Origin: Candidatus Nomurabacteria bacterium
GTDB taxonomy: Bacteria; Patescibacteriota; Minisyncoccia; Phycocordibacterales; UBA9973
Assembly: GCA_023898605.1 (NCBI GenBank)
Contig: CP060230.1
Coordinates: forward strand, 321,304-385,303
Length of the DNA: 64,000 nt
Direction: 5' to 3'
In this document: positions 2,857-64,000 of the stretch, one piece after another
Layout of the letters: each line of letters opens with the position of its first letter
Position numbering within the stretch: the stretch's first letter is position 1
Position numbers and translations under genes: made by a program
The notes under the pieces: generated by a model
Seen by the model: the letters and a program-made list of their open reading frames with translations, nothing else
Told to the model about the DNA's origin: nothing
Database searches by the model: none

Positions 2857-4296
2857 TTACTTGATAGAAGACTCTAGGTCTTCTGCTATTTCAAATAAAG
2901 CATCATCTTCATACTTTGGTCCCATAAACTGCACGCCCATTGGTAGATCATTCTTGTTTCTCTCAAACGGTATAGATATTGCTGGAACACCTGCGATGTT
3001 TGCAGGTACGGTAAAGAGGTCTGACATCTTGATCGCAACTGGGTCGTCTATTTTTTCACCACTTCTAAACGGAGGAAACGGAGAAGTTGGTGTAAATATG
3101 ACATCAACATAATCTGGATTGGACTTATCAAATACATCTTCCAATTCTTTTGTTATAGCAAACTGCATATCAAGCGCTTTCCTATAGTATGCATCGTAAT
3201 ATCCATGAGAAAGTATATAAGTTCCAAGAAGAACTCTCCTTCTTGTTTCCATACCGAATCCTTCTCCTCTACTTCTCGCATAAATATCGAAAAGTGTATC
3301 TCCGTCCTTTCTCCTACCGTAACGCATACCGTCATATCTAGAAAGGTTACTAGATGCTTCTGCTGGCATAAGTATATAGTAAACAGCCAGAGAGTACTCT
3401 GTCATAGGAAGTGAGATGTTTACTATTTCGTAACCTTTGTCCTCCAATATTTTTACCGCTTTTTCAAAAGACTCTTTTATGTCAGTACTTACACCCTCAC
3501 CGTTTATCCAGTCTTTTGGAACACCGATCTTTTTTATTTTTCTTGGTTTTATATCTTTTGTATATTCTGGAGAAATAGAGTTGGCATCTTGTTTATCGAA
3601 AAAAGAAAGTGCTTTATACAAAACAAAAGCGTCTTTTACATTTTTGGCTATTGGACCAATTTGATCTAGAGAAGAAGCGAGAGACATGAGTCCGTATCTA
3701 GAAACAAACCCATATGTCGGCTTGAATCCTACAAGGTCACAGAATGCTGCCGGCTGTCTTATAGAACCACCGGTGTCTGATCCTAAGGAAACAAGAGCTC
3801 CATCCATGGCAACAGCTGCTGCTGAGCCACCACTAGAGCCTCCTGGTACATAATCTAGGTTTATAGGGTTTTTTGTTCTTCCAAAAGCAGATGTTTCTGT
3901 AGAAGATCCCATGGCAAACTCGTCCATGTTTGTTCTGCCTAGAAATACAGCGCCTTTGTGTCTTAGTCTTGCAACAACAGAAGAATCGTAGTTTGCTCTG
4001 TAGTGTTCTAGTATCTTTGAAGATGCGCTAGAAATTTTACCTTTGAAAAGTATGTTGTCTTTGAGTGCAATCGGTATACCTGTTATAAGTTCAGCTGTTC
4101 CGTCTTCAAACTTTTTGTCAGCATCTTTTGCTTGAGCTAGAACATCGTCATAAACCTCTAGATAAGCGTTTGTGTCTTTGTTTTTTAGTTCTATGTTTTC
4201 AAGATATGCTTGTGCAAGTTTTACTGCTGTAATCTTCCTAGATTTCATCAGTTCATGAGCAGTTTTTATATCTAGATTTCTAAGGTCTATATCCAT
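2857..4296 (-). CDS. gatA: Glutamyl-tRNA(Gln) amidotransferase subunit A
   Basis: Amidase signature GGSSGGSAAAVA and a Ser-cisSer-Lys type core; 479 aa. Confidence 0.9.
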   Translation of the reverse strand: MDIDLRNLDIKTAHELMKSRKITAVKLAQAYLENIELKNKDTNAYLEVYDDVLAQAKDADKKFEDGTAELITGIPIALKDNILFKGKISSASSKILEHYRANYDSSVVARLRHKGAVFLGRTNMDEFAMGSSTETSAFGRTKNPINLDYVPGGSSGGSAAAVAMDGALVSLGSDTGGSIRQPAAFCDLVGFKPTYGFVSRYGLMSLASSLDQIGPIAKNVKDAFVLYKALSFFDKQDANSISPEYTKDIKPRKIKKIGVPKDWINGEGVSTDIKESFEKAVKILEDKGYEIVNISLPMTEYSLAVYYILMPAEASSNLSRYDGMRYGRRKDGDTLFDIYARSRGEGFGMETRRRVLLGTYILSHGYYDAYYRKALDMQFAITKELEDVFDKSNPDYVDVIFTPTSPFPPFRSGEKIDDPVAIKMSDLFTVPANIAGVPAISIPFERNKNDLPMGVQFMGPKYEDDALFEIAEDLESSIK

Positions 4297-4576: not shown

Positions 4577-4824
4577 AAGAGAAATTATACATTATTTGAA
4601 CCTTTTTTCGAGTATTTGACAAAAAGAAATATCATGATAATGTAAAGAAAAATTGCACCCATTATGAAAATAAATAAAGAACTTGCCTTGAGATATATAG
4701 GCAACCCAAAATTCTGTTCTTCTTCCGAAGCACTTCAGTACGCCAAGGGGGTTGGAGACTCAGATGTCTGGCAAACTGTCCTTGGGAGAGCTGATGTTCA
4801 GGAGTATCTCCAAGAAGATTAGCA

Positions 4825-4847
4825 AAAAGCGGGTAAACCCCGCTTTT
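4825..4847. terminator. Bidirectional rho-independent terminator downstream of ligA
   Basis: AAAAGCGGGTAAACCCCGCTTTTTTT hairpin with a U-run. Confidence 0.5.
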
Positions 4848-4848
4848 T

Positions 4849-6900
4849 TTATTTTACTAATTTCAAAAATTCTGCTTCCGAGATTGTTTTTACACCCAGT
4901 TTTTTTGCGTCATCAAGTTTGCTTCCAGGATTTTCTCCCAAAAGCACAAAGTCAGTTAGTTTAGAAACAGAACTTGTCACCTTGCCACCATTTTTCTTAA
5001 TCAAATCTTTGGCTTCGTCTCTAGAAAGAGTTGGAAGTGTACCGGTTAGAACAAAAGTTTTTCCAGAAAAAGTTTTTGTCGAACCAGAAAACTTTGTTTC
5101 ATCTATAAATATTTCTATTTCAGAAAACAGATCTTTTAGGAATTCTTGGTTTTTTTTATCAGAGAAATACTCAACAAAACTTCTTGCGCCTTCTTCTCCT
5201 ATGCCATATATAGATTCTATGTCTTCAAACGTAAGACTTGTTAGGATTTTATAATAATCATTGGCTTTACTTCCCCACTTTTGGAATATTTCTTTTTCTA
5301 TTATTTCAGCTCCTTCTTCTCCTATGTGGAGTATCCCTATGGCATAAAGAAGGTTATTTAGTTCTATTTTTCTACTTTCATCGATAGACTTTACGAGGTT
5401 CTCTGCGCTTTTTTCTCCAAATCTTTCTAGTACATCTATATCGCCCGTTTTTAGTCTGTATATACTTTCTGGAGTATCAATAAGACCGAGATCATAAAAT
5501 CTTTCTATTTGTTTTTCTCCAAAACCTACGATATTCGCACCCTTTTTGGAAACAAAATGTTTTAGTCTCTCTATTTCTCTCTTGTAGCAATTTTTATTTG
5601 TGCAGTACCAAGCAGCTGAAACCTTGCCAGAAGTGGTATTTTTCTTTTCTAGTAGAGACCCACATATAGGGCAGTTTTTTGGCATTTTGAATGACTTTTC
5701 TTTGCCAGTCCGTAAGTCCTTTAGGACTGAAACTATTTCTGGTATAACATCGCCTGCTTTTCTCAAGATAACAGTGTCGCCTATCTTTACATCTAGTCTT
5801 TCTATTTCTTCTTCGTTGTGAAGAGTTGCCCTAGAAACAAGTGACCCTGCGATTCTGACAGGTCTTAGTTCCGCTACAGGAGTAATGGCTCCAGTTCTAC
5901 CGACTTGGACCGTTATCTTTTCTAGAACTGTTGTAGTTTCTTCTGCTTTGAATTTATAAGCTATCCCAAATCTTGGTGCCTTGGATGTATATCCTAGAGA
6001 ATCATATTTTTCAACTTCAGAAACTTTTATAACTATTCCATCCACGCCATATTCTTTGTCCTCTCTGAGATCATTTTCTTTTTGATAAAACTTTTCTACT
6101 TCGTCTATATTTTTTGCCACATAAAAGTTTTTGTTTATAGGTAATCCTAGGTCAGAAAGTTTTAGTAGTATATCTTTTTGAGTTTTTATATCTTGGAAAT
6201 CATCAAAATTTTCTATCGAATAGAAGAAAACTTGTATATTTCTCGAACGAGTTACAGACGGATCTAGCTGACGTAAACTTCCAGCTGCAGCATTTCTAGT
6301 ATTGGCAAAAAGTGGAAGCTCTTCTTTTTCTCTTTCTTTGTTTAGTTTCAGAAGATCACTTTTCTTCATCCACGCTTCTCCGACAACTGTAACGTCAACT
6401 TTTTGGTTCAATTTTTTTGGGATAGAATCTATAGCCATAACACTATGTGTTATATCTTCTCCGACTTCACCGTCTCCTCTTGTTGCACCAAGTACCAGCT
6501 CTCCTCCTTTGTAAGTAACTATTATTTTCAATCCGTCTATTTTTTCTTCGCAAACATAACTCATGGAAGTATCTAGATCATCTCCAGATAGAATTTTTTT
6601 CAATCTTTCTTCCCATGCTGTAAGCTCATCAAAATCAAAAACGTTATTGTAAGAATACTGAGGATAGATATGTTTTACCTTGGTGAATTTTTCTACTGGA
6701 GCCCCGCCGACTTTTGAAGTTGGCGAGTTTAGCGCCATGTTAGGATATTTCTCTTCCAATGCCAAAAGCTCAGAAACGAGAGCATCATATGCCTCGTCGC
6801 TTATTTCTGGCGAATCTTTTTCGTGATACAACCCTCTATGATAGTCGATTATACTAGAGAGTTTTTTTGCCCTCTCTTTATCCTTTTTCGGTATATCCAT
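4849..6900 (-). CDS. ligA: NAD-dependent DNA ligase
   Basis: 683 aa. Contains the adenylation lysine motif KIDGLKI, an OB fold, a zinc finger CPICGS...C, HhH repeats and a C-terminal BRCT domain. Confidence 0.9.
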   Translation of the reverse strand: MDIPKKDKERAKKLSSIIDYHRGLYHEKDSPEISDEAYDALVSELLALEEKYPNMALNSPTSKVGGAPVEKFTKVKHIYPQYSYNNVFDFDELTAWEERLKKILSGDDLDTSMSYVCEEKIDGLKIIVTYKGGELVLGATRGDGEVGEDITHSVMAIDSIPKKLNQKVDVTVVGEAWMKKSDLLKLNKEREKEELPLFANTRNAAAGSLRQLDPSVTRSRNIQVFFYSIENFDDFQDIKTQKDILLKLSDLGLPINKNFYVAKNIDEVEKFYQKENDLREDKEYGVDGIVIKVSEVEKYDSLGYTSKAPRFGIAYKFKAEETTTVLEKITVQVGRTGAITPVAELRPVRIAGSLVSRATLHNEEEIERLDVKIGDTVILRKAGDVIPEIVSVLKDLRTGKEKSFKMPKNCPICGSLLEKKNTTSGKVSAAWYCTNKNCYKREIERLKHFVSKKGANIVGFGEKQIERFYDLGLIDTPESIYRLKTGDIDVLERFGEKSAENLVKSIDESRKIELNNLLYAIGILHIGEEGAEIIEKEIFQKWGSKANDYYKILTSLTFEDIESIYGIGEEGARSFVEYFSDKKNQEFLKDLFSEIEIFIDETKFSGSTKTFSGKTFVLTGTLPTLSRDEAKDLIKKNGGKVTSSVSKLTDFVLLGENPGSKLDDAKKLGVKTISEAEFLKLVK

Positions 6901-29997: not shown

Positions 29998-30032
29998 AAC
30001 GCCTTAAAATAAGGCGTTTTGTGCTTTTTTGT

Positions 30033-30105
30033 CCACCCTCTTGGACTCGAACCAAGGACCCCAGAGGTATAAGCTCTGTGCTCTAACCAACTGAGCTAAG
30101 GGTGG
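30033..30105 (-). tRNA. tRNA-Ile (anticodon TAT)
   Basis: Minus-strand cloverleaf: acceptor CCACCCT/AGGGTGG, D-arm GCTCAGTTGGTTAGAGC, anticodon stem-loop CAGAG-CTTATAC-CTCTG, T-arm CTTGGTTCGAGTCCAAG. Confidence 0.65.
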
Positions 30106-34173: not shown

Positions 34174-34523
34174 TGTGCAATTTATTTTTCTAGTTATATT
34201 TTATCACAAAATACTTATTTGTCAATAAAAAACCCGCGCACACGTCACAGGTTTTTGTTTAGCATGTCCAGGAAGAGTCCTGAACAAATAAAAGTTGGAA
34301 GTATCATAGAAAAAAGGAATGCTGACTCGATCCCTTCTTCAAAGAACAATATCGCAGAAACGAGACCTAGTGCTCCCAAAATAGGGGTGTAGTATATTCG
34401 TCTTTTTTTCCTTGCCGTTTCTCCCCAGAGTTTATAGTCCAAAGGTTCTTTCATACTGGATTGATTTTTTAGGAGTATAAACAAAAAACTAGCCAGTGGC
34501 TAGTTTTTTTGTATTTTGTGGAA

Positions 34524-34760
34524 TTAAATCAAATGTCTATTCGCAAAAGCAAAACCAGATCCATGCTTTAAGTATTTTTCAAAATCTAATGCTTTATTTT
34601 TATCTTTAAAAGCTGAATAAAAAATTAATTCAAAATCTCCACTTTTCGTTGTTTTAACAGTCTTATGATTATGACTCTTTAATCTAGATTTCAAATCTCT
34701 AGTAAAACCAACATAACGCTCTTTTGATTCTTTATTTTTTAAAATATAAACGTAATACAC
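34524..34760 (-). CDS. Small GIY-YIG nuclease-domain protein (YhbQ/UPF0213-like)
   Basis: MYYVYILKNKESKERYVGFTRDLKSRLKSHNH..., the GIY-(10)-YIG, R and H pattern; 78 aa. Confidence 0.65.
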   Translation of the reverse strand: MYYVYILKNKESKERYVGFTRDLKSRLKSHNHKTVKTTKSGDFELIFYSAFKDKNKALDFEKYLKHGSGFAFANRHLI

Positions 34761-34827
34761 GATAAAATTATATCAATAAGTTCTTCTTCGCTAAAGCTAC
34801 AAAGAACCACTGCTTCTTTTTTATAAA

Positions 34828-34856
34828 ACAAAACACCCTAACTTTAGGGTGTTTTG
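34828..34856. terminator. Bidirectional terminator
   Basis: AAAACACCCTAACTTTAGGGTGTTTT. Confidence 0.5.
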
Positions 34857-34867
34857 TTTTTGCTTAT

Positions 34868-35010
34868 TGTGCCCTCACTGCGTTATCAAGATTATTCAGT
34901 GCGTGCACTGCGAATTTTTATAAGATAAAAGTGCGTGCACTGCGAATTTTTATAAGATAAAAGTGCGTGCACTGCGAATTTTTATAAGATAAAAGTGCGT
35001 GCACTGCGAA
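34868..35010. repeat. Tandem direct repeat, 32-bp unit in about 4.5 copies, with no spacers
   Basis: The unit GTGCGTGCACTGCGAATTTTTATAAGATAAAA occupies 34899-34930, 34931-34962 and 34963-34994. A partial unit spans 34995-35010 and a degenerate copy lies at 34868-34898. Confidence 0.85.
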
Positions 35011-35025
35011 GCTTTAGCGAAGCAG

Positions 35026-35410
35026 TGGAAATGGGGGGAATCGAACCCCCGTGCAACAACTTCTCTACTATTCGTCTACATGTTTATTTCTATTTCGTAT
35101 CTCGATTACAAACTAAAAAATAGAACAAAACCGATTGTAATCTAACTCAAAATTTTTCGTGTCAGAAAGAGAGTGGCTTCCAGACCTTATCTCAGAAAGT
35201 ATTATACCCGTTATATCCACCCTGAGAAAAAGATATAGGGGCAGCTAGCGATTTATACGCGAGCGTAAGCAAAATCGTTCATACTAAAGTATGGAGATTT
35301 TACTGAAAATGCTTTTGCATTTATGTTTTGTGTCAAACTTTTACGAAAATAGGACACTTATTCGACATGCAAAATAACAAAGACGGCTATTGTCGATACC
35401 GATCATTCCC
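35026..35410 (-). ncRNA. ssrA: Candidate tmRNA (ssrA)
   Basis: The minus strand ends ...GGGGGTTCGATTCCCCC-CATTTCC-A (T-arm plus 3' acceptor strand) and begins GGGAATG-ATCGGTATCGAC, whose first 7 nt pair perfectly with CATTTCC. The gene is about 385 nt and lies immediately downstream of smpB. The tag ORF was not resolved. Confidence 0.5.
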
Positions 35411-35437
35411 CTAAATCATTTTGCTTTGCAAAATGAT

Positions 35438-35610
35438 CGGGCGAACATTTGCTTTATCAAGCAAATGTTTTAGCCATAAATCTTATATCACATTGATATA
35501 AGTCGGGCGAACATTTGCTTTATCAAGTAAATGTTTTAGCCATAAATCTTATATCACATTGATATAAGTCGGGCGAACATTTGCTTTATCAAGCAAATGT
35601 TTTAGCCATA
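35438..35610. repeat. Tandem direct repeat, 66-bp unit in about 2.6 copies, each containing two hairpins
   Basis: Units at 35438-35503 and 35504-35569, with a partial unit from 35570. Internal palindromes AACATTTGC-TTTATCAA-GCAAATGTT and ATATCA-CAT-TGATAT. Confidence 0.8.
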
Positions 35611-35621
35611 TAAGTAACTTC

Positions 35622-35885
35622 TTATGAGTTACTTTGTATATAACTTTTCAAAATTTTACTTTTTTCTCTTGCGCCCCAAAGACTTTTTAGAAACCTTTCT
35701 CGTTTGAAGGCCTCTGATTTATTATCAAAAATTTCTTTTTTAATCAAAACAATAGGTCTTCTGTTTTTGGTTGATTCCACAAAACCTGAATTATGTCTAA
35801 TCAATCTTTTTTCTAAATCAGAAGTACAACCAACATAAAGCTTCTTATCTTTTTCACTAAAAAGTATATATACAAAGTAACTCAT
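35622..35885 (-). CDS. Small GIY-YIG nuclease-domain protein
   Basis: MSYFVYILFSEKDKKLYVGCTSDLEKRLIRHNSG...; 87 aa. Confidence 0.65.
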   Translation of the reverse strand: MSYFVYILFSEKDKKLYVGCTSDLEKRLIRHNSGFVESTKNRRPIVLIKKEIFDNKSEAFKRERFLKSLWGAREKSKILKSYIQSNS

Positions 35886-35886
35886 T

Positions 35887-36330
35887 TTACCTTTTCAAGG
35901 TTCTTCCGAGAGCTCTCTCTGTGTCTCTTTTTTTGATAGTTTCGCGTTTATCGTATTTCTTCTTACCACGACAAATACCAATAGACACTTTGATTACTCT
36001 TCCTTTATTATACAACGAAAGTGGCACTATTGTCAAACCTTTGGTTTTTTCTGTGTTTTCTAGTTTCTTGATCTCATCCTTGGATAGAAGAAGCCTTTTT
36101 ACCCTTTCTGGATCATAGTCTTCTGGAGAATTGTTTGGTTGATATGGGTCTATTTTTAGCCCTAAAACGAACGCTTCTCCACCTCTTATGATAACCCTGC
36201 CTCCTACAAGAGAGCACTTACCACTTTTGACAGATTTGACCTCATATCCAAAAAGCTCGATTCCCGCCTCGATTTTCTCCAGTACTTCATAATCGAAGTA
36301 TGCTTTCTTATTTTGGGCAAAATCAGCCAT
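35887..36330 (-). CDS. smpB: SsrA-binding protein SmpB
   Basis: 147 aa, ...KKAYFDYEVLEKIEAGIELFGYEVKS...LLLSKDEIKKL... with a basic C-terminal tail. Confidence 0.85.
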   Translation of the reverse strand: MADFAQNKKAYFDYEVLEKIEAGIELFGYEVKSVKSGKCSLVGGRVIIRGGEAFVLGLKIDPYQPNNSPEDYDPERVKRLLLSKDEIKKLENTEKTKGLTIVPLSLYNKGRVIKVSIGICRGKKKYDKRETIKKRDTERALGRTLKR

Positions 36331-48933: not shown

Positions 48934-49206
48934 CTAAGTGCTTTTACTTAGTTGAATTAATAAATCTTTATTTCCATCTATCAACGCTTTCTTTTTTGCT
49001 TTTGACCACCCTTTGATTTGTTTTTCTCTTTTTTCAGCCAGATTTCTAGTGTGTAGATTTTCTGTATACACTAGCTCTACTGAGTTAAATTTACTCGTAA
49101 ATTTTGACTGCTTGTTTTTATGCTGAAAAAATCTCCGTTCAAGATTGTCTGTCATTCCTGTATAATACATTTCTTGGTTGCAAAAAAGTATATATACAAA
49201 CCACAT
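48934..49206 (-). CDS. Small GIY-YIG nuclease-domain protein (third paralog in the window)
   Basis: MWFVYILFCNQEMYYTGMTDNLERRFFQHKNK...; 90 aa. Located between junction 1 and junction 2 of the island. Confidence 0.65.
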   Translation of the reverse strand: MWFVYILFCNQEMYYTGMTDNLERRFFQHKNKQSKFTSKFNSVELVYTENLHTRNLAEKREKQIKGWSKAKKKALIDGNKDLLIQLSKST

Positions 49207-49242
49207 GAATCAATTATACGCAAAGCACTGAGCTTGTCGAAG

Positions 49243-49445
49243 TGCGGTGTTTGTTGGACAAAGTTCGAAGCTATTTCGAGCAAAATCCAAACGATTAAAA
49301 CTAATAAAATGGACTCGGCAGGGCGAAACAATTTGTCTGGGGGAATGGATTCGCCCTGCCTCGGCTGATTTCCCGCCCGCAGGAGGGGTCTGGGGAGGAA
49401 TGCGGGCGGGTTTCGGACTGGGGTTTTTCGGAAATTCAGCGGCTA
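49243..49445 (+). repeat. 203-bp inverted-repeat arm of the island (member of the 200-nt repeat family)
   Basis: Near-identical reverse complement of 52017-52219. Begins with the TGCGG core at 49243-49247 and contains the GC-rich hairpin CCCGCCCGCA...TGCGGGCGGG. Confidence 0.85.
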
Positions 49446-50837
49446 TGATTTTGGTATTGCTGGAAAATCAACAATTTTCCCAACACTATTTTTTATAACA
49501 TCTCGGCAACTTTTTGCAAAAACTTTATTGTTTGATTCTTTTATATATTTTGCAACACGAAAAAGGTCAGTTGTTCTTACCAAAGCACAATTTGAAGATT
49601 TTGCTGTAGTTATACATTTGGTTGTAAACTGTTCTGCTCGCTCGGATGGTTTTGTGAGTCGAAAGCCATTTCCAAATAGAATACCGACCGCAGGGTTTTC
49701 CACTTCATCTCTTTGCAAGTCTTCCTGAATATTTACTGCAAGTTGTCTAAACTTATCAATATTGACTGCGGAAGTGTCTTTACCCTCTGCTTCGCCGATA
49801 AAACGATCTCCCTCTGGCGAGGTGATAACATGATCTAATTCAAGATTTCCGTCATTATAATTTTCTGCCTTATAACCTAAAATCTCTAAGGCGGTAGTGA
49901 TTGCAGTTTCAAGCACTTTTCCTTTTTCAAATAGTAAATCTCTTAACTTAATTTCTTCATCAATCTTTGTTAGTAGCTCATTCTTTTGTAAAATCAGTTT
50001 CTCAATTTCTTTTGTTTTCTTTTCAACTTCATTTTTTAAAATCTGCTCTTGTGCTAATTGGTAATCCGTTTCATTCGTCCAATCTGGTGGCGGGGTTTTA
50101 TCTCCTCCTTTACGGAGAGCTTTATCAATATCAACAAGCGCCTTAACTAAAGATTTTCCAAATTGCGTTGCTTCTTTTGTCCAATATTCTTTTTTATCCT
50201 TGCCTTTAATTTCAGTAAACTTTTTCTCATCATAATTTATGTAGGGCAAAACAATTATGTTTCCATTTTTGACTTTATAAATTGCACCTAAAATCTTTGT
50301 TTTATCCTTGCCCGTAAAAAGAACCTGTGCACCTGTTGCGTTTTCTATATAAAGCTGGTACTCCAAACTTTTCTTGAATTTTTCATTAAAATCACTAAAC
50401 ACTGTATTTCCCGAAAATTCAACATGTTTTCCAGAGGCGGAAGTTAATGAGCCAATATTGATCGGCAAAAAAGCGTAGTTGTTATACATTTCCGTATGAA
50501 AAGTATTTTGCCCCTTTCTTTCCGATGAAACGCTACTGGCAAGCTGATATTCTTCTTTATTCGTTAAAAGAATAAAAACATTTTTCCCCGCATTTAAATA
50601 ATCTTCAATCTCTTTTCTTAAACGTGATATTTTTTGTTTGTAAGCTTGCGAAGCCGAAACATTGTAGCAACCTCCATCGCTTGTAGTGAAGCTAACCCAA
50701 TCTCCTCTTGGCACTAATGAATCAGGCGAAATCAATAGAATATCAGCATCCATCAAAGACTTACCATCGTAAAAATCAACGAGATTTGTGTCGAATGTTG
50801 GTATCGTATATCCAATTGTGAATATCTGATTTTCCAT
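49443..50837 (-). CDS. Hypothetical island cargo protein: unknown N-terminal domain, coiled-coil and possible PD-(D/E)xK-like C-terminus
   Basis: Start set at MENQIFTIGY (ATG 50835-50837), two nucleotides after the EamA stop. The central region is K/E-rich and helical. The C-terminus ...ELDHVITSPEGDRFIGEAEGKD... fits a D...ExK pattern. Confidence 0.45.
   Translation of the reverse strand: MENQIFTIGYTIPTFDTNLVDFYDGKSLMDADILLISPDSLVPRGDWVSFTTSDGGCYNVSASQAYKQKISRLRKEIEDYLNAGKNVFILLTNKEEYQLASSVSSERKGQNTFHTEMYNNYAFLPINIGSLTSASGKHVEFSGNTVFSDFNEKFKKSLEYQLYIENATGAQVLFTGKDKTKILGAIYKVKNGNIIVLPYINYDEKKFTEIKGKDKKEYWTKEATQFGKSLVKALVDIDKALRKGGDKTPPPDWTNETDYQLAQEQILKNEVEKKTKEIEKLILQKNELLTKIDEEIKLRDLLFEKGKVLETAITTALEILGYKAENYNDGNLELDHVITSPEGDRFIGEAEGKDTSAVNIDKFRQLAVNIQEDLQRDEVENPAVGILFGNGFRLTKPSERAEQFTTKCITTAKSSNCALVRTTDLFRVAKYIKESNNKVFAKSCRDVIKNSVGKIVDFPAIPKS

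Positions 50838-62089: not shown

Positions 62090-64000
<1,911 letters not shown>

Follow-up and report, generated by a model that had tools for sequence, protein, structure and literature searches.

Two kinds of miniature GIY-YIG cassettes at the tmRNA gene of a Nomurabacteria-like bacterium point to a family of small elements specialised on tRNA-like genes

The stretch of DNA analysed here (the window, 64,000 nucleotides (nt), positions 321,304 to 385,303 of contig CP060230.1, assembly GCA_023898605.1) stems from an ultra-small, Nomurabacteria-like bacterium of the candidate phyla radiation (CPR) and carries smpB together with ssrA, the gene for transfer-messenger RNA (tmRNA). This ancestral smpB-ssrA pair is occupied by two different miniature GIY-YIG cassettes, which we call type 1 and type 2. 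The order on the minus strand is smpB, a GIY-YIG gene of 87 amino acids (aa), an array of 66-bp repeats, the tmRNA gene, an array of 32-bp repeats, a terminator and a second GIY-YIG gene of 78 aa. The elements reported in a first-pass annotation of this DNA were all found at the minus-strand places it had given, including the terminator, the acceptor pairing and the T-arm. The features of the locus are as follows.

35887..36330, minus strand: smpB, 147 aa (Pfam SmpB, E 2.8e-49)
35622..35885, minus strand: type-1 mini GIY-YIG gene, 87 aa, UPF0213-like, catalytic core only (PF01541, E 1.5e-15)
35867..35885, minus strand: 5′ arm of the inverted repeat that closes the type-1 open reading frame (ORF), ATGAGTTACTTTGTATATA, start codon and codons 2-6
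35624..35642, minus strand: 3′ arm of the same inverted repeat, TATATACAAAGTAACTCAT, last codons and first base of the stop codon
35542..35607, minus strand: 5′ module copy 1, GGCTAAA-hairpin-TCGCCCGA-hairpin-TTTAT (module model R1, 53.6 bits, E 1e-10; Tandem Repeats Finder (TRF))
35476..35541, minus strand: 5′ module copy 2 (R1, 49.9 bits, E 9e-10)
35411..35475, minus strand: 5′ module copy 3, with a differing second hairpin (TCATTTTGCaaaGCAAAATGA); its TTTAG end adjoins tmRNA +1 (R1, 74 bits, E 5e-16)
35023..35410, minus strand: ssrA (tmRNA), standard one-piece, CCA not encoded (RF00023, 119.8 bits; ARAGORN)
35019..35028, minus strand: left arm CCACTGCTTC, last tmRNA bases and first bases of the type-2 leader, then GC (giving CTTCGC)
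34866..35010, minus strand: 32-bp array, 3.5 perfect copies and one degenerate copy of TTCGCAGTGCACGCACT + TTTATCTTATAAAAA (TRF; repeat search)
34825..34860, minus strand: intrinsic terminator hairpin, 17-bp stem and T run (inverted-repeat search; terminator scan)
34807..34816, minus strand: right arm GAAGCAGTGG, exact inverted copy of the left arm (tmRNA 3′ tail)
34761..34806, minus strand: hairpin GTTCTT-TGTAGCTTTAGCGAA-GAAGAAC with the conserved loop motif GTAGCTTTAGCGAAG
34524..34760, minus strand: type-2 mini GIY-YIG gene, 78 aa, GTG start (PF01541, E 3.2e-18)
34483..34509, both strands: bidirectional terminator-like hairpin at the end of the type-2 cassette

A covariance search established that the tmRNA candidate is ssrA: the gene matches Rfam RF00023 over its full length (model positions 1-374) with 119.8 bits (gathering threshold 47) and E 3e-46. 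Its acceptor pairs GGGAAUG with CAUUUCC, the T-arm reads GGGGGUUCGAUUCCCCC, and ARAGORN located the tag reading frame, which encodes AKAFSVKSPYFSMNDFAYARV followed by a stop. The gene adjoins smpB and is flanked by the two small GIY-YIG genes, which score 57.7 bits (type 1) and 66.2 bits (type 2) against PF01541 (cut-off 22.6). The adjacency of smpB and the type-1 gene was correctly described; the overlap of 1-2 nt was not, as a single base (35886) parts the TAA of smpB from the ATG of the next gene. TRF returned the 66-bp unit with the 2.6 copies counted before (35437..35610, 98% matches). The 32-bp unit is repeated as well, although the 4.5 copies reported for it amount to 3.5 copies with 100% matches (34898..35010) and one degenerate copy that is 64% identical. 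Both arrays run head-to-tail without spacers, in line with the earlier statement that the 32-bp array is not one of clustered regularly interspaced short palindromic repeats (CRISPR). Neither unit recurs elsewhere in the 64 kb, where the shuffled expectation is about 0.

To place the locus among its relatives (loci numbered with L), 80 species-level loci were sampled by SmpB (L001-L080; all Patescibacteria/CPR, top identity 64%), and a profile of the type-1 protein gave 80 metagenomic loci (L088-L167), 79 of them informative, i.e. with upstream sequence. ARAGORN called a tmRNA in 57 of the 80 smpB-sampled relatives, and in 54 it was co-oriented with and downstream of smpB. The gap between the two genes was 4-175 nt in 42 of these 54 loci, compared to 476 nt in the window. 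The longer gap of the window, which houses the GIY-YIG gene together with the 66-bp array, is therefore an addition to the ancestral smpB-ssrA pair. The 66-bp units had also been proposed to lie where the ssrA promoter should be. This was not borne out: no conserved -35 or -10 boxes were found inside the module (one 9-of-12 match in the scan), and in cassette-free relatives ssrA either follows smpB at 4-175 nt or is preceded, at a distance of a few nt, by a promoter of its own. The 3′ third of the smpB coding sequence contains a sigma70 consensus without mismatch (TTGACA-18-TATAAT, 12/12; 36036..36007, minus strand), a candidate internal promoter for a downstream GIY-YIG/ssrA transcript. The terminator at 34825..34860 is probably the end of the pre-tmRNA transcript. 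Many relatives without GIY-YIG genes (L003, L007, L015, L024, L034, L057, L068 and L073) have a terminator 100-200 nt past the tmRNA, in which the acceptor 3′ strand of the tmRNA, copied in inverse orientation, lengthens the stem (CATCTCCAC...GTGGAGATG). After this terminator they carry a conserved element, GAG-CAAGCAAACTGCTTTGCTTG-CGTGGGG..GGATCGAA..GCCGCAGC, which is a further unexplained ssrA-associated module.

The type-1 gene belongs to a family of more than 270 homologues (83-111 aa, 60-74% identity) with an invariant ...RERFLKSLW... motif. The catalytic residues Y6, Y17, G19, R27, H31 and E63 were invariant across 30 type-1 sequences. The family profile matches PDB 1YWL (E 3.8e-10) and 1ZG2 (E 7.4e-10), and the single-domain size fits UPF0213. 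The position of the family is conserved too: the order smpB, GIY-YIG gene, one to four modules and tmRNA was found in 78 of the 79 informative type-1 loci. L099 (1128..1453) is the sole type-1 locus in which no smpB was hit although the upstream sequence is longer than 1 kb; its gene is followed by a module, yet the next bases, GGCCTGAT, are unlike a tmRNA 5′ end, and this cassette may occupy a different site. A third mini GIY-YIG gene is present in the window itself (48934..49206, minus strand, 90 aa; tblastn E 1e-6 to type 1). It has a TATAAT about 6 nt ahead of its ATG, and CCGCACTTCG(A/C)CAA stands on either side of the gene. The region upstream of it (49207..49450) contains about 180 nt of unusually GC-rich sequence with two long hairpins (minimum free energy (MFE) -67.7 kcal/mol, z -3.55), for which an Rfam search returned no family.

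In the window, the type-1 ORF is closed by a perfect 19-nt inverted repeat (35867-35885 / 35624-35642, 19/19), which the first-pass annotation had overlooked. The start of the ORF, including the start codon, pairs with its end, and the 3′ arm is the last 19 nt ahead of the final AA of the stop codon. A perfect run of at least 10 nt (maximum 19) between the two ORF ends, with differing sequences, was observed in 22 of 72 distinct type-1 genes, whereas internal controls had a mean of 5 nt and never exceeded 9. In 32 of the 72 genes the complementarity was above the gene's own maximum control. Since the start-codon region is paired with the ORF's own 3′ end, the ATG would be hidden in an mRNA stem, which probably limits translation to ribosomes arriving from smpB. 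Alternatively, the inverted repeat may act at the DNA level.

The 66-bp repeat was resolved into three copies of a two-hairpin module of about 64 nt, GGCUAAA-stem-UCGCCCGA-stem-UUUAG. Across the type-1 loci this module is about 55-70 nt long (GGCTAAA-hairpin-TCGCCCGA-hairpin-TTTAG) and occurs in 1-4 tandem copies, and its last G adjoins, or equals, the first G of the tmRNA. Among 87 distinct instances, hairpins 1 and 2 had 80 and 82 different sequences, respectively. All of them fold, with a mean MFE of -8.7 and -6.4 kcal/mol for the two hairpins compared to -1.5 and -0.8 for shuffles. The stems covary strongly: in an alignment of 65 sequences 97.2% of the cells were paired, whereas shuffles gave 75.9% and slid partners 31-52%, and there were 250 double-sided stem changes versus 67. 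The pairs are almost purely Watson-Crick (G.U about 1.5%); the G.U pairs were divided 22 to 10 between the sense and antisense strands, out of about 1470 pairs, numbers too small to tell RNA from DNA. The single-stranded motifs GGCUAAA and UCGCCCGA are invariant, and a G.U closing pair is kept in 61 of the 65 sequences. RNAalifold gave an alternative in which GGC pairs with GCC around hairpin 1, but these pairs are invariant. A three-way junction with a CUAAA/UUUAG helix closing around both hairpins was considered and dropped because of UCUAG/UUCUAG variants without compensation.

A covariance model of the module (R1) was run against 913 kb of smpB-sampled and type-2 loci as a control. It matched only the window (three times, copy 3 being the best match in the 913 kb with 74 bits), the type-1-positive loci L026, L037 and L038, and L016, where a solo module lies on the opposite strand between two protein genes. 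Modules at ssrA without a type-1 gene were never found in these 913 kb. Several loci contain additional matches to TCGCCCGA, but these lie in coding DNA and proved to be due to chance. Apart from the tmRNA, a search of 34300-36000 against Rfam 15 at permissive E-values gave only chance-level matches (30 bits or less, with gathering thresholds of 40-440).

Modules were also found inside tmRNA genes. At least 10 type-1 loci carry an extra module within the gene, and all 10 full copies are sense-oriented. Seven of the internal copies share one site about 190-230 nt into the tmRNA gene, directly 5′ of GGNGTAATAT; the remaining ones lie at +287, +326 and +395. When L089 was compared to the related L138, which has an empty site, the copy appeared as a clean insertion of about 60 nt. 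In-silico removal of the internal copy restored a canonical ARAGORN call in L089, L107, L126 and L165, and each of these four tmRNAs begins 1 nt past the upstream module. The internal copy in L107, L143, L092 and L165 is closer to the upstream copy of its own genome (98%, 91%, 83% and 82% identity, respectively) than to any other copy, which indicates recent intragenomic copying or gene conversion. Partial or solo copies on the opposite strand were seen in L092, L112 and L016. The module is therefore a short hairpin unit able to insert at new sites. ARAGORN misses the tmRNA in 23 of the 80 loci sampled by SmpB and, among the type-1 loci, in roughly every second one; 60-nt modules inside the gene help to explain these misses and account for at least four of them.

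The second cassette lies on the other side of ssrA. For its GIY-YIG protein, 494 homologues with a length of 78-79 aa were retrieved from Paceibacterota, Doudnabacteria, Peregrinibacteria and Gracilibacteria. Eleven distinct contexts of the type-2 gene were examined, and in 10 of them a tmRNA or tRNA gene of the same orientation precedes it at a distance of 60-135 nt. It follows a tmRNA in L168 and L169 and, among the smpB-sampled loci, in L002, L033, L054, L055 and L092. In L175-181 it follows tRNA-Arg, a cassette of about 360 bp being placed neatly between tRNA-Arg and tRNA-Ala; tRNA-Glu precedes it in L182-189 and tRNA-Leu in L191-198. The cassettes linked to tRNA-like genes occur in Paceibacteria, Doudnabacteria and Peregrinibacteria. 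In the eleventh context, L190, a tmRNA-3′-like fragment (ATCTCCACCA) stands ahead of the leader.

The leader of the type-2 gene has a shared order. An arm runs from the 3′ end of the tRNA-like gene into CTTCGC and is followed by a small hairpin or a terminator hairpin. Next comes TTCGC with a palindrome (CAGTGC-NN-GCACTG, GGTGC-NN-GCACC or GTGGC-AC-GCCAC), and then the first arm once more, exactly inverted and with changes between loci that compensate each other. The arm pairs read CCACTGCTTC/GAAGCAGTGG in the window, TCCACCACTTCA/TGAAGTGGTGGA in L002 and CACACTTCA/TGAAGTGTG in L175; pairs with compensatory changes were found in L002, L033, L054, L055, L169 and L175. The next element is a hairpin, the loop of which carries G(T/A)AGC..GCGAAG; it precedes the type-2 genes in L054, L055, L002, L033, L168, L175 and L183 as CCYGCG(T/A)AGC..GCGAAG..GGG. 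Finally, an A/T-rich -10 box lies a few nt before ATG/GTG-TAY-TAY-GT. In the window this box, TATAAT (34767-34772), ends 6 nt before the GTG, which suggests that the type-2 mRNA is possibly leaderless. The 32-bp array is the TTCGC-palindrome of this leader (CAGTGC-NN-GCACTG) amplified by three extra copies together with 15 A/T-rich nt. The palindrome is single-copy in all relatives examined (L168, L054, L055, L002, L033, L092 and L175). The two arrays, which had been taken to be unrelated, thus have in common that each amplifies a conserved non-coding module of the adjacent GIY-YIG cassette.

Loci with and without the type-1 gene are interleaved at 82-88% SmpB identity, as in the pairs L037/L052 (88%), L162/L008 (88%) and L167/L001 (86%), where the first locus of each pair is positive and the second negative. 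The filled locus L037 and the empty locus L052 have the same base at 44 of 45 positions of the tmRNA 5′ end, and the cassette of about 420 bp in L037 stands in place of a 26-nt spacer in L052. That spacer (3968..3995) reads AAAAAGGCTAATACAGCTTTACAAAC and opens like a module (GGCTAA), so that it could be either the trace of a lost cassette or the native sequence that gave rise to the module. The comparison with relatives proposed earlier as a check on repeat copy number was informative, as the 66-bp unit proved to be neither absent nor invariant: it is widespread, with 1-4 copies between genomes. Strains of the species itself also appear to differ in repeat number. The same-species locus L082 is short of one 32-bp unit, and its 66-bp array contains an N-gap; L083 has a single module and four single-nucleotide differences in the tmRNA; these copy numbers come from short-read assemblies and may in part reflect assembly collapse. 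Several metagenome contigs of the species end inside the arrays. Together with the 1-4 copies across genomes, the strain differences make the arrays look recent and unstable. The view of ssrA as a hotspot for foreign DNA also held.

All these data point to an apparently undescribed family of small elements specialised on tRNA-like genes. Both cassette architectures are conserved in many genomes and their presence differs among close relatives; the tandem number of the modules varies, and intragenomic copying has placed modules at a specific site of the tmRNA gene. The explanation that we favour, with a probability of about one half, is that the cassettes are selfish, homing-type units resident at the flanks of tRNA-like genes, where they would provoke tandem amplification of their own modules. 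The predicted nucleases would break or nick DNA at or near tRNA-like genes or at hairpin DNA, and recombination repair of such breaks would copy the cassette into empty alleles, so that it spreads or is retained. Slipped or microhomology repair would expand the adjacent modules and give rise to the 66-bp and 32-bp arrays. The hairpins would also keep the host RNA ends processable. As is typical of homing-type genes, the cassettes are intergenic, lie between conserved genes and vary in presence among close relatives. The closest precedent is SegB, a GIY-YIG endonuclease encoded among the tRNA genes of T-even (T4/T6) phages, which cleaves tRNA-gene DNA at RAWTSGAAC and causes the DNA around its own gene to be amplified in tandem segments (PMC13096335). 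The complement of this site matches the T-loop of the window tmRNA, GTTCGATTC. GIY-YIG ORFs have also been described in non-intron insertions of CPR rRNA genes (PMC11270868).

Several observations weigh against homing-type cassettes. The 78-90-aa proteins have neither a C-terminal DNA-binding domain nor a full-length match to TIGR01453, the homing GIY-YIG model, which aligned only to residues ~4-46 with 21-26 bits (cut-off 56). Known homing GIY-YIG enzymes need a DNA-binding domain, and the 78-87-aa proteins of the two cassettes are without one. No consistent target-site duplication was found around the modules, although flanks often share GG or GGCT(A/T)A (L111, L016). A comparison of GIY-YIG and SmpB identities gave no clearly discordant high-identity pair that would indicate recent horizontal transfer. 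The two identities were moderately correlated (r = 0.48), and the type-1 protein is on average more conserved than SmpB (61% versus 55%). This partial co-divergence fits either long residence with losses or a role that benefits the host. Moreover, the modules are nearly confined to the ssrA region and have a strong sense bias, unlike ordinary miniature inverted-repeat transposable elements (MITEs), which is compatible with a function at the RNA level. The possible collapse of repeats in the strain assemblies has to be added to this list.

The lack of a DNA-binding domain, the co-divergence with SmpB, the orientation bias and the confinement to ssrA all feed the main alternative, in which the module acts as RNA. 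The module would be a cis-acting 5′ leader of the pre-tmRNA, or an intervening sequence where it is internal, and the type-1 protein its binding or cleaving partner; together they would control tmRNA 5′-end maturation or smpB/ssrA expression, and the arrays would be harmless duplications of the leader. The strict synteny of smpB, GIY-YIG gene, module and ssrA, with the module always ending exactly at tmRNA +1, fits such a role, and so do the sense orientation of 10/10 full internal copies, the invariant single-stranded motifs (GGCUAAA and UCGCCCGA) with the G.U closing pair in 61/65 sequences, the absence of gene-less modules at ssrA, and a type-1 protein that is more conserved than SmpB and partly co-diverges with it. 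We nevertheless consider this alternative rather doubtful. Close relatives manage without the cassette, which is therefore not required for tmRNA function, and no GIY-YIG enzyme is known to act on RNA. The near-pure Watson-Crick stems (G.U about 1.5%) are unusual for RNA selected across divergent lineages. Opposite-strand solo or partial copies (L016, L112 and L092) and the intragenomic copying, which is a DNA event, also argue against this alternative.

It is a somewhat more tentative idea, and in our opinion an unlikely one, that the type-1 protein and its module form a new nuclease/hairpin-element system that is site- and orientation-specific for the tmRNA gene, with type 2 as a sister system. 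In one version the module would be transposed or copied as DNA, and the GIY-YIG protein would take the role that HUH transposases have for repetitive extragenic palindromic (REP) or IS200/IS605 hairpins. In another, the module would be an intervening sequence cut from the pre-tmRNA, giving protein-dependent 5′ maturation and, from internal copies, two-piece tmRNAs. The type-2 sister system would act at the 3′ ends of tRNAs and tmRNAs across CPR phyla.

In the window alone, the order of 32-nt repeats (3.5 copies), terminator and second GIY-YIG gene mimics the ToxI-terminator-ToxN order of a type III (ToxIN) toxin-antitoxin or defence system, in which a repeat-RNA antitoxin is processed by, and inhibits, the nuclease. 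We regard such a system as very improbable here, since the repeat is single-copy in every relative examined and tandem repetition is thus not a conserved feature. In addition, the proteins are of the GIY-YIG type rather than ToxN/AbiQ-type. PADLOC reported no system hit; PDC-S14 and a homing-endonuclease model were matched only weakly (E 5e-4 at best), and NCBIfam likewise contained no named family beyond weak homing-endonuclease similarity.

Another suggestion was that the arrays are iterated attachment (att) remnants, left by islands in repeated rounds of integrase-mediated entry and exit at the tmRNA 3′ end. Such ends are classic integration sites (PMC11915505), and in L033, L165, L040 and L026 the 3′ end of the tmRNA is indeed directly repeated 150-200 nt downstream. 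The 32-bp and 66-bp units, however, contain no tmRNA 3′-end sequence, and none was found in or after the arrays. No integrase was present among the adjacent genes examined (Pfam scan, ORF listing and gene calls), and the 66-bp array lies on the 5′ side of ssrA. An origin from att sites hence has very little credibility. An assembly artefact or chance low complexity as the source of the repeats can be practically dismissed: several metagenome contigs do stop within the arrays, where one scaffold also shows an N-gap, but an independent NCBI assembly (GCA_020428735.1, annotated as Candidatus Nomurabacteria) is identical over the entire locus, and the unit is conserved and covarying, and often tandem, in more than 100 independent loci.

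Second direct copies of a tmRNA or tRNA end, 110-200 nt away from the first, were also recorded as an observation of their own, in L033 (~4790-4965), L165 (~3440-3700), L040, L026, L186 and L192/L197. Examples of the duplicated ends are CCGCCCATCTCCACCA and, for tRNA-Glu, CCCGTTGGGAGTGCCA; L192/L197 have the 5′ part of tRNA-Leu in duplicate. Between the duplicated ends lies a conserved small insert with GGAATCGAAC...GGGTCGGGAGAACTCTAGGTCTCCCGTGGAGGAAGG. These look like another class of tiny insertions, by which the ends of tRNA-like genes are duplicated.

Among the neighbouring genes of the locus, the Pfam scan recognised a nicotinamide mononucleotide transporter and ORFs without a family hit. 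According to the ORF listing and to gene calls on the identical contig, the remainder of 32.5-38 kb encodes initiation factor IF3, ribosomal proteins L35 and L20 and an FtsH-like protease. The tRNA-Ile gene at 30031..30105 (minus strand) has the anticodon TAT (UAU) and not the usual CAU that is modified to lysidine. When aligned to the bacterial Rfam model, the 23S rRNA gene of the window (62103..64000, minus strand) shows large insertions, with blocks of 128 and 109 nt. Such large 23S insertions are typical of CPR rRNA insertion sequences.

The assignments of the tmRNA, smpB and GIY-YIG genes are routine, and the cassettes are relatives of known free-standing GIY-YIG genes and small palindromic elements. 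A description of the arrangement was not found in the literature on GIY-YIG proteins with tmRNA, in Patescibacteria, in COG2827 or in UPF0213/YhbQ, nor in that on palindromic or intervening sequences in tmRNA. Rfam and the searchable literature likewise contained no position-specific mini-cassette families, no such module and no conserved type-2 leader. The 2025 tmRNA database paper distinguishes only standard, intron and permuted gene forms, and its authors state that interruptions at other sites may have escaped notice. The inserted modules affect tmRNA annotation in CPR genomes. Two stand-alone GIY-YIG families pinned to exact positions at tRNA-like genes, together with covarying modules, offer defined substrates for biochemistry. 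If nuclease-driven amplification is true, the mechanism of SegB, only recently described in phages, would also operate on bacterial chromosomes and with enzymes of far smaller size. A new route of tmRNA maturation would emerge if the RNA-level alternative is true.

When the locus is compared to known systems, the likeness to ToxIN is restricted to the tandem short repeats, terminator and small nuclease gene of the window; homologous loci are without tandem repeats and the nuclease is from an unrelated family. The GIY-YIG insertions of CPR rRNA genes (PMC11270868) share the CPR hosts, the small GIY-YIG ORFs, the non-intron character and the target class of structural RNA genes. They lie inside 16S and 23S genes at scattered, poorly conserved sites, whereas the ORFs described here flank tmRNA and tRNA genes at fixed positions and are accompanied by modules.

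Small palindromic elements such as Rickettsia palindromic elements (RPEs), BOX, Correia and REP with its associated transposase (RAYT) resemble the modules in their size of 50-100 nt, their hairpins and their inverted-repeat-like ends (CTAAAAC...GTTTTAG). Like BOX, the modules are modular with a variable tandem number; like REP/RAYT, a single-copy nuclease gene is flanked by its own hairpin elements; and the modules insert into a structural RNA gene. RPEs have been reported in the Rickettsia tmRNA gene. The modules differ in that they are orientation-biased and not dispersed (three copies in 64 kb, all at ssrA), and many dispersed copies in both orientations, as in MITEs or REPs, were found neither in the window nor in the flanks of the relatives. 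Furthermore, the associated enzyme is a GIY-YIG protein and not an HUH/Y1 transposase.

The stand-alone GIY-YIG proteins of UPF0213/COG2827 (EF2693, 1YWL; BH0048, 1ZG2), a group to which E. coli YhbQ presumably belongs, are similar in size (about 80-100 aa), match with E values around 1e-10 and keep the catalytic residues. These proteins of about 80 aa are widespread, and no function for them turned up in our literature and database searches. The entries found give no genomic partner or function, whereas the two families at this locus are tied to fixed ssrA and tRNA positions and to modules.

The free-standing GIY-YIG genes of T-even phages, with SegB as the best precedent, share most with the cassettes: a nuclease gene in intergenic DNA beside tRNA-like genes, a presence that varies among close relatives, and tandem amplification of the neighbourhood that is tied to the nuclease. 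The translation of T4 seg and mob genes is often restrained by RNA structure, which is a further likeness to the type-1 gene of the window. SegB has about 220 aa and a DNA-binding domain, whereas the putative nucleases of the window have 78-87 aa, consist of the catalytic core only and are encoded on a bacterial chromosome. In addition, the cassettes carry dedicated conserved hairpin modules, and the amplified units are non-coding and of 32-66 bp instead of gene-sized.

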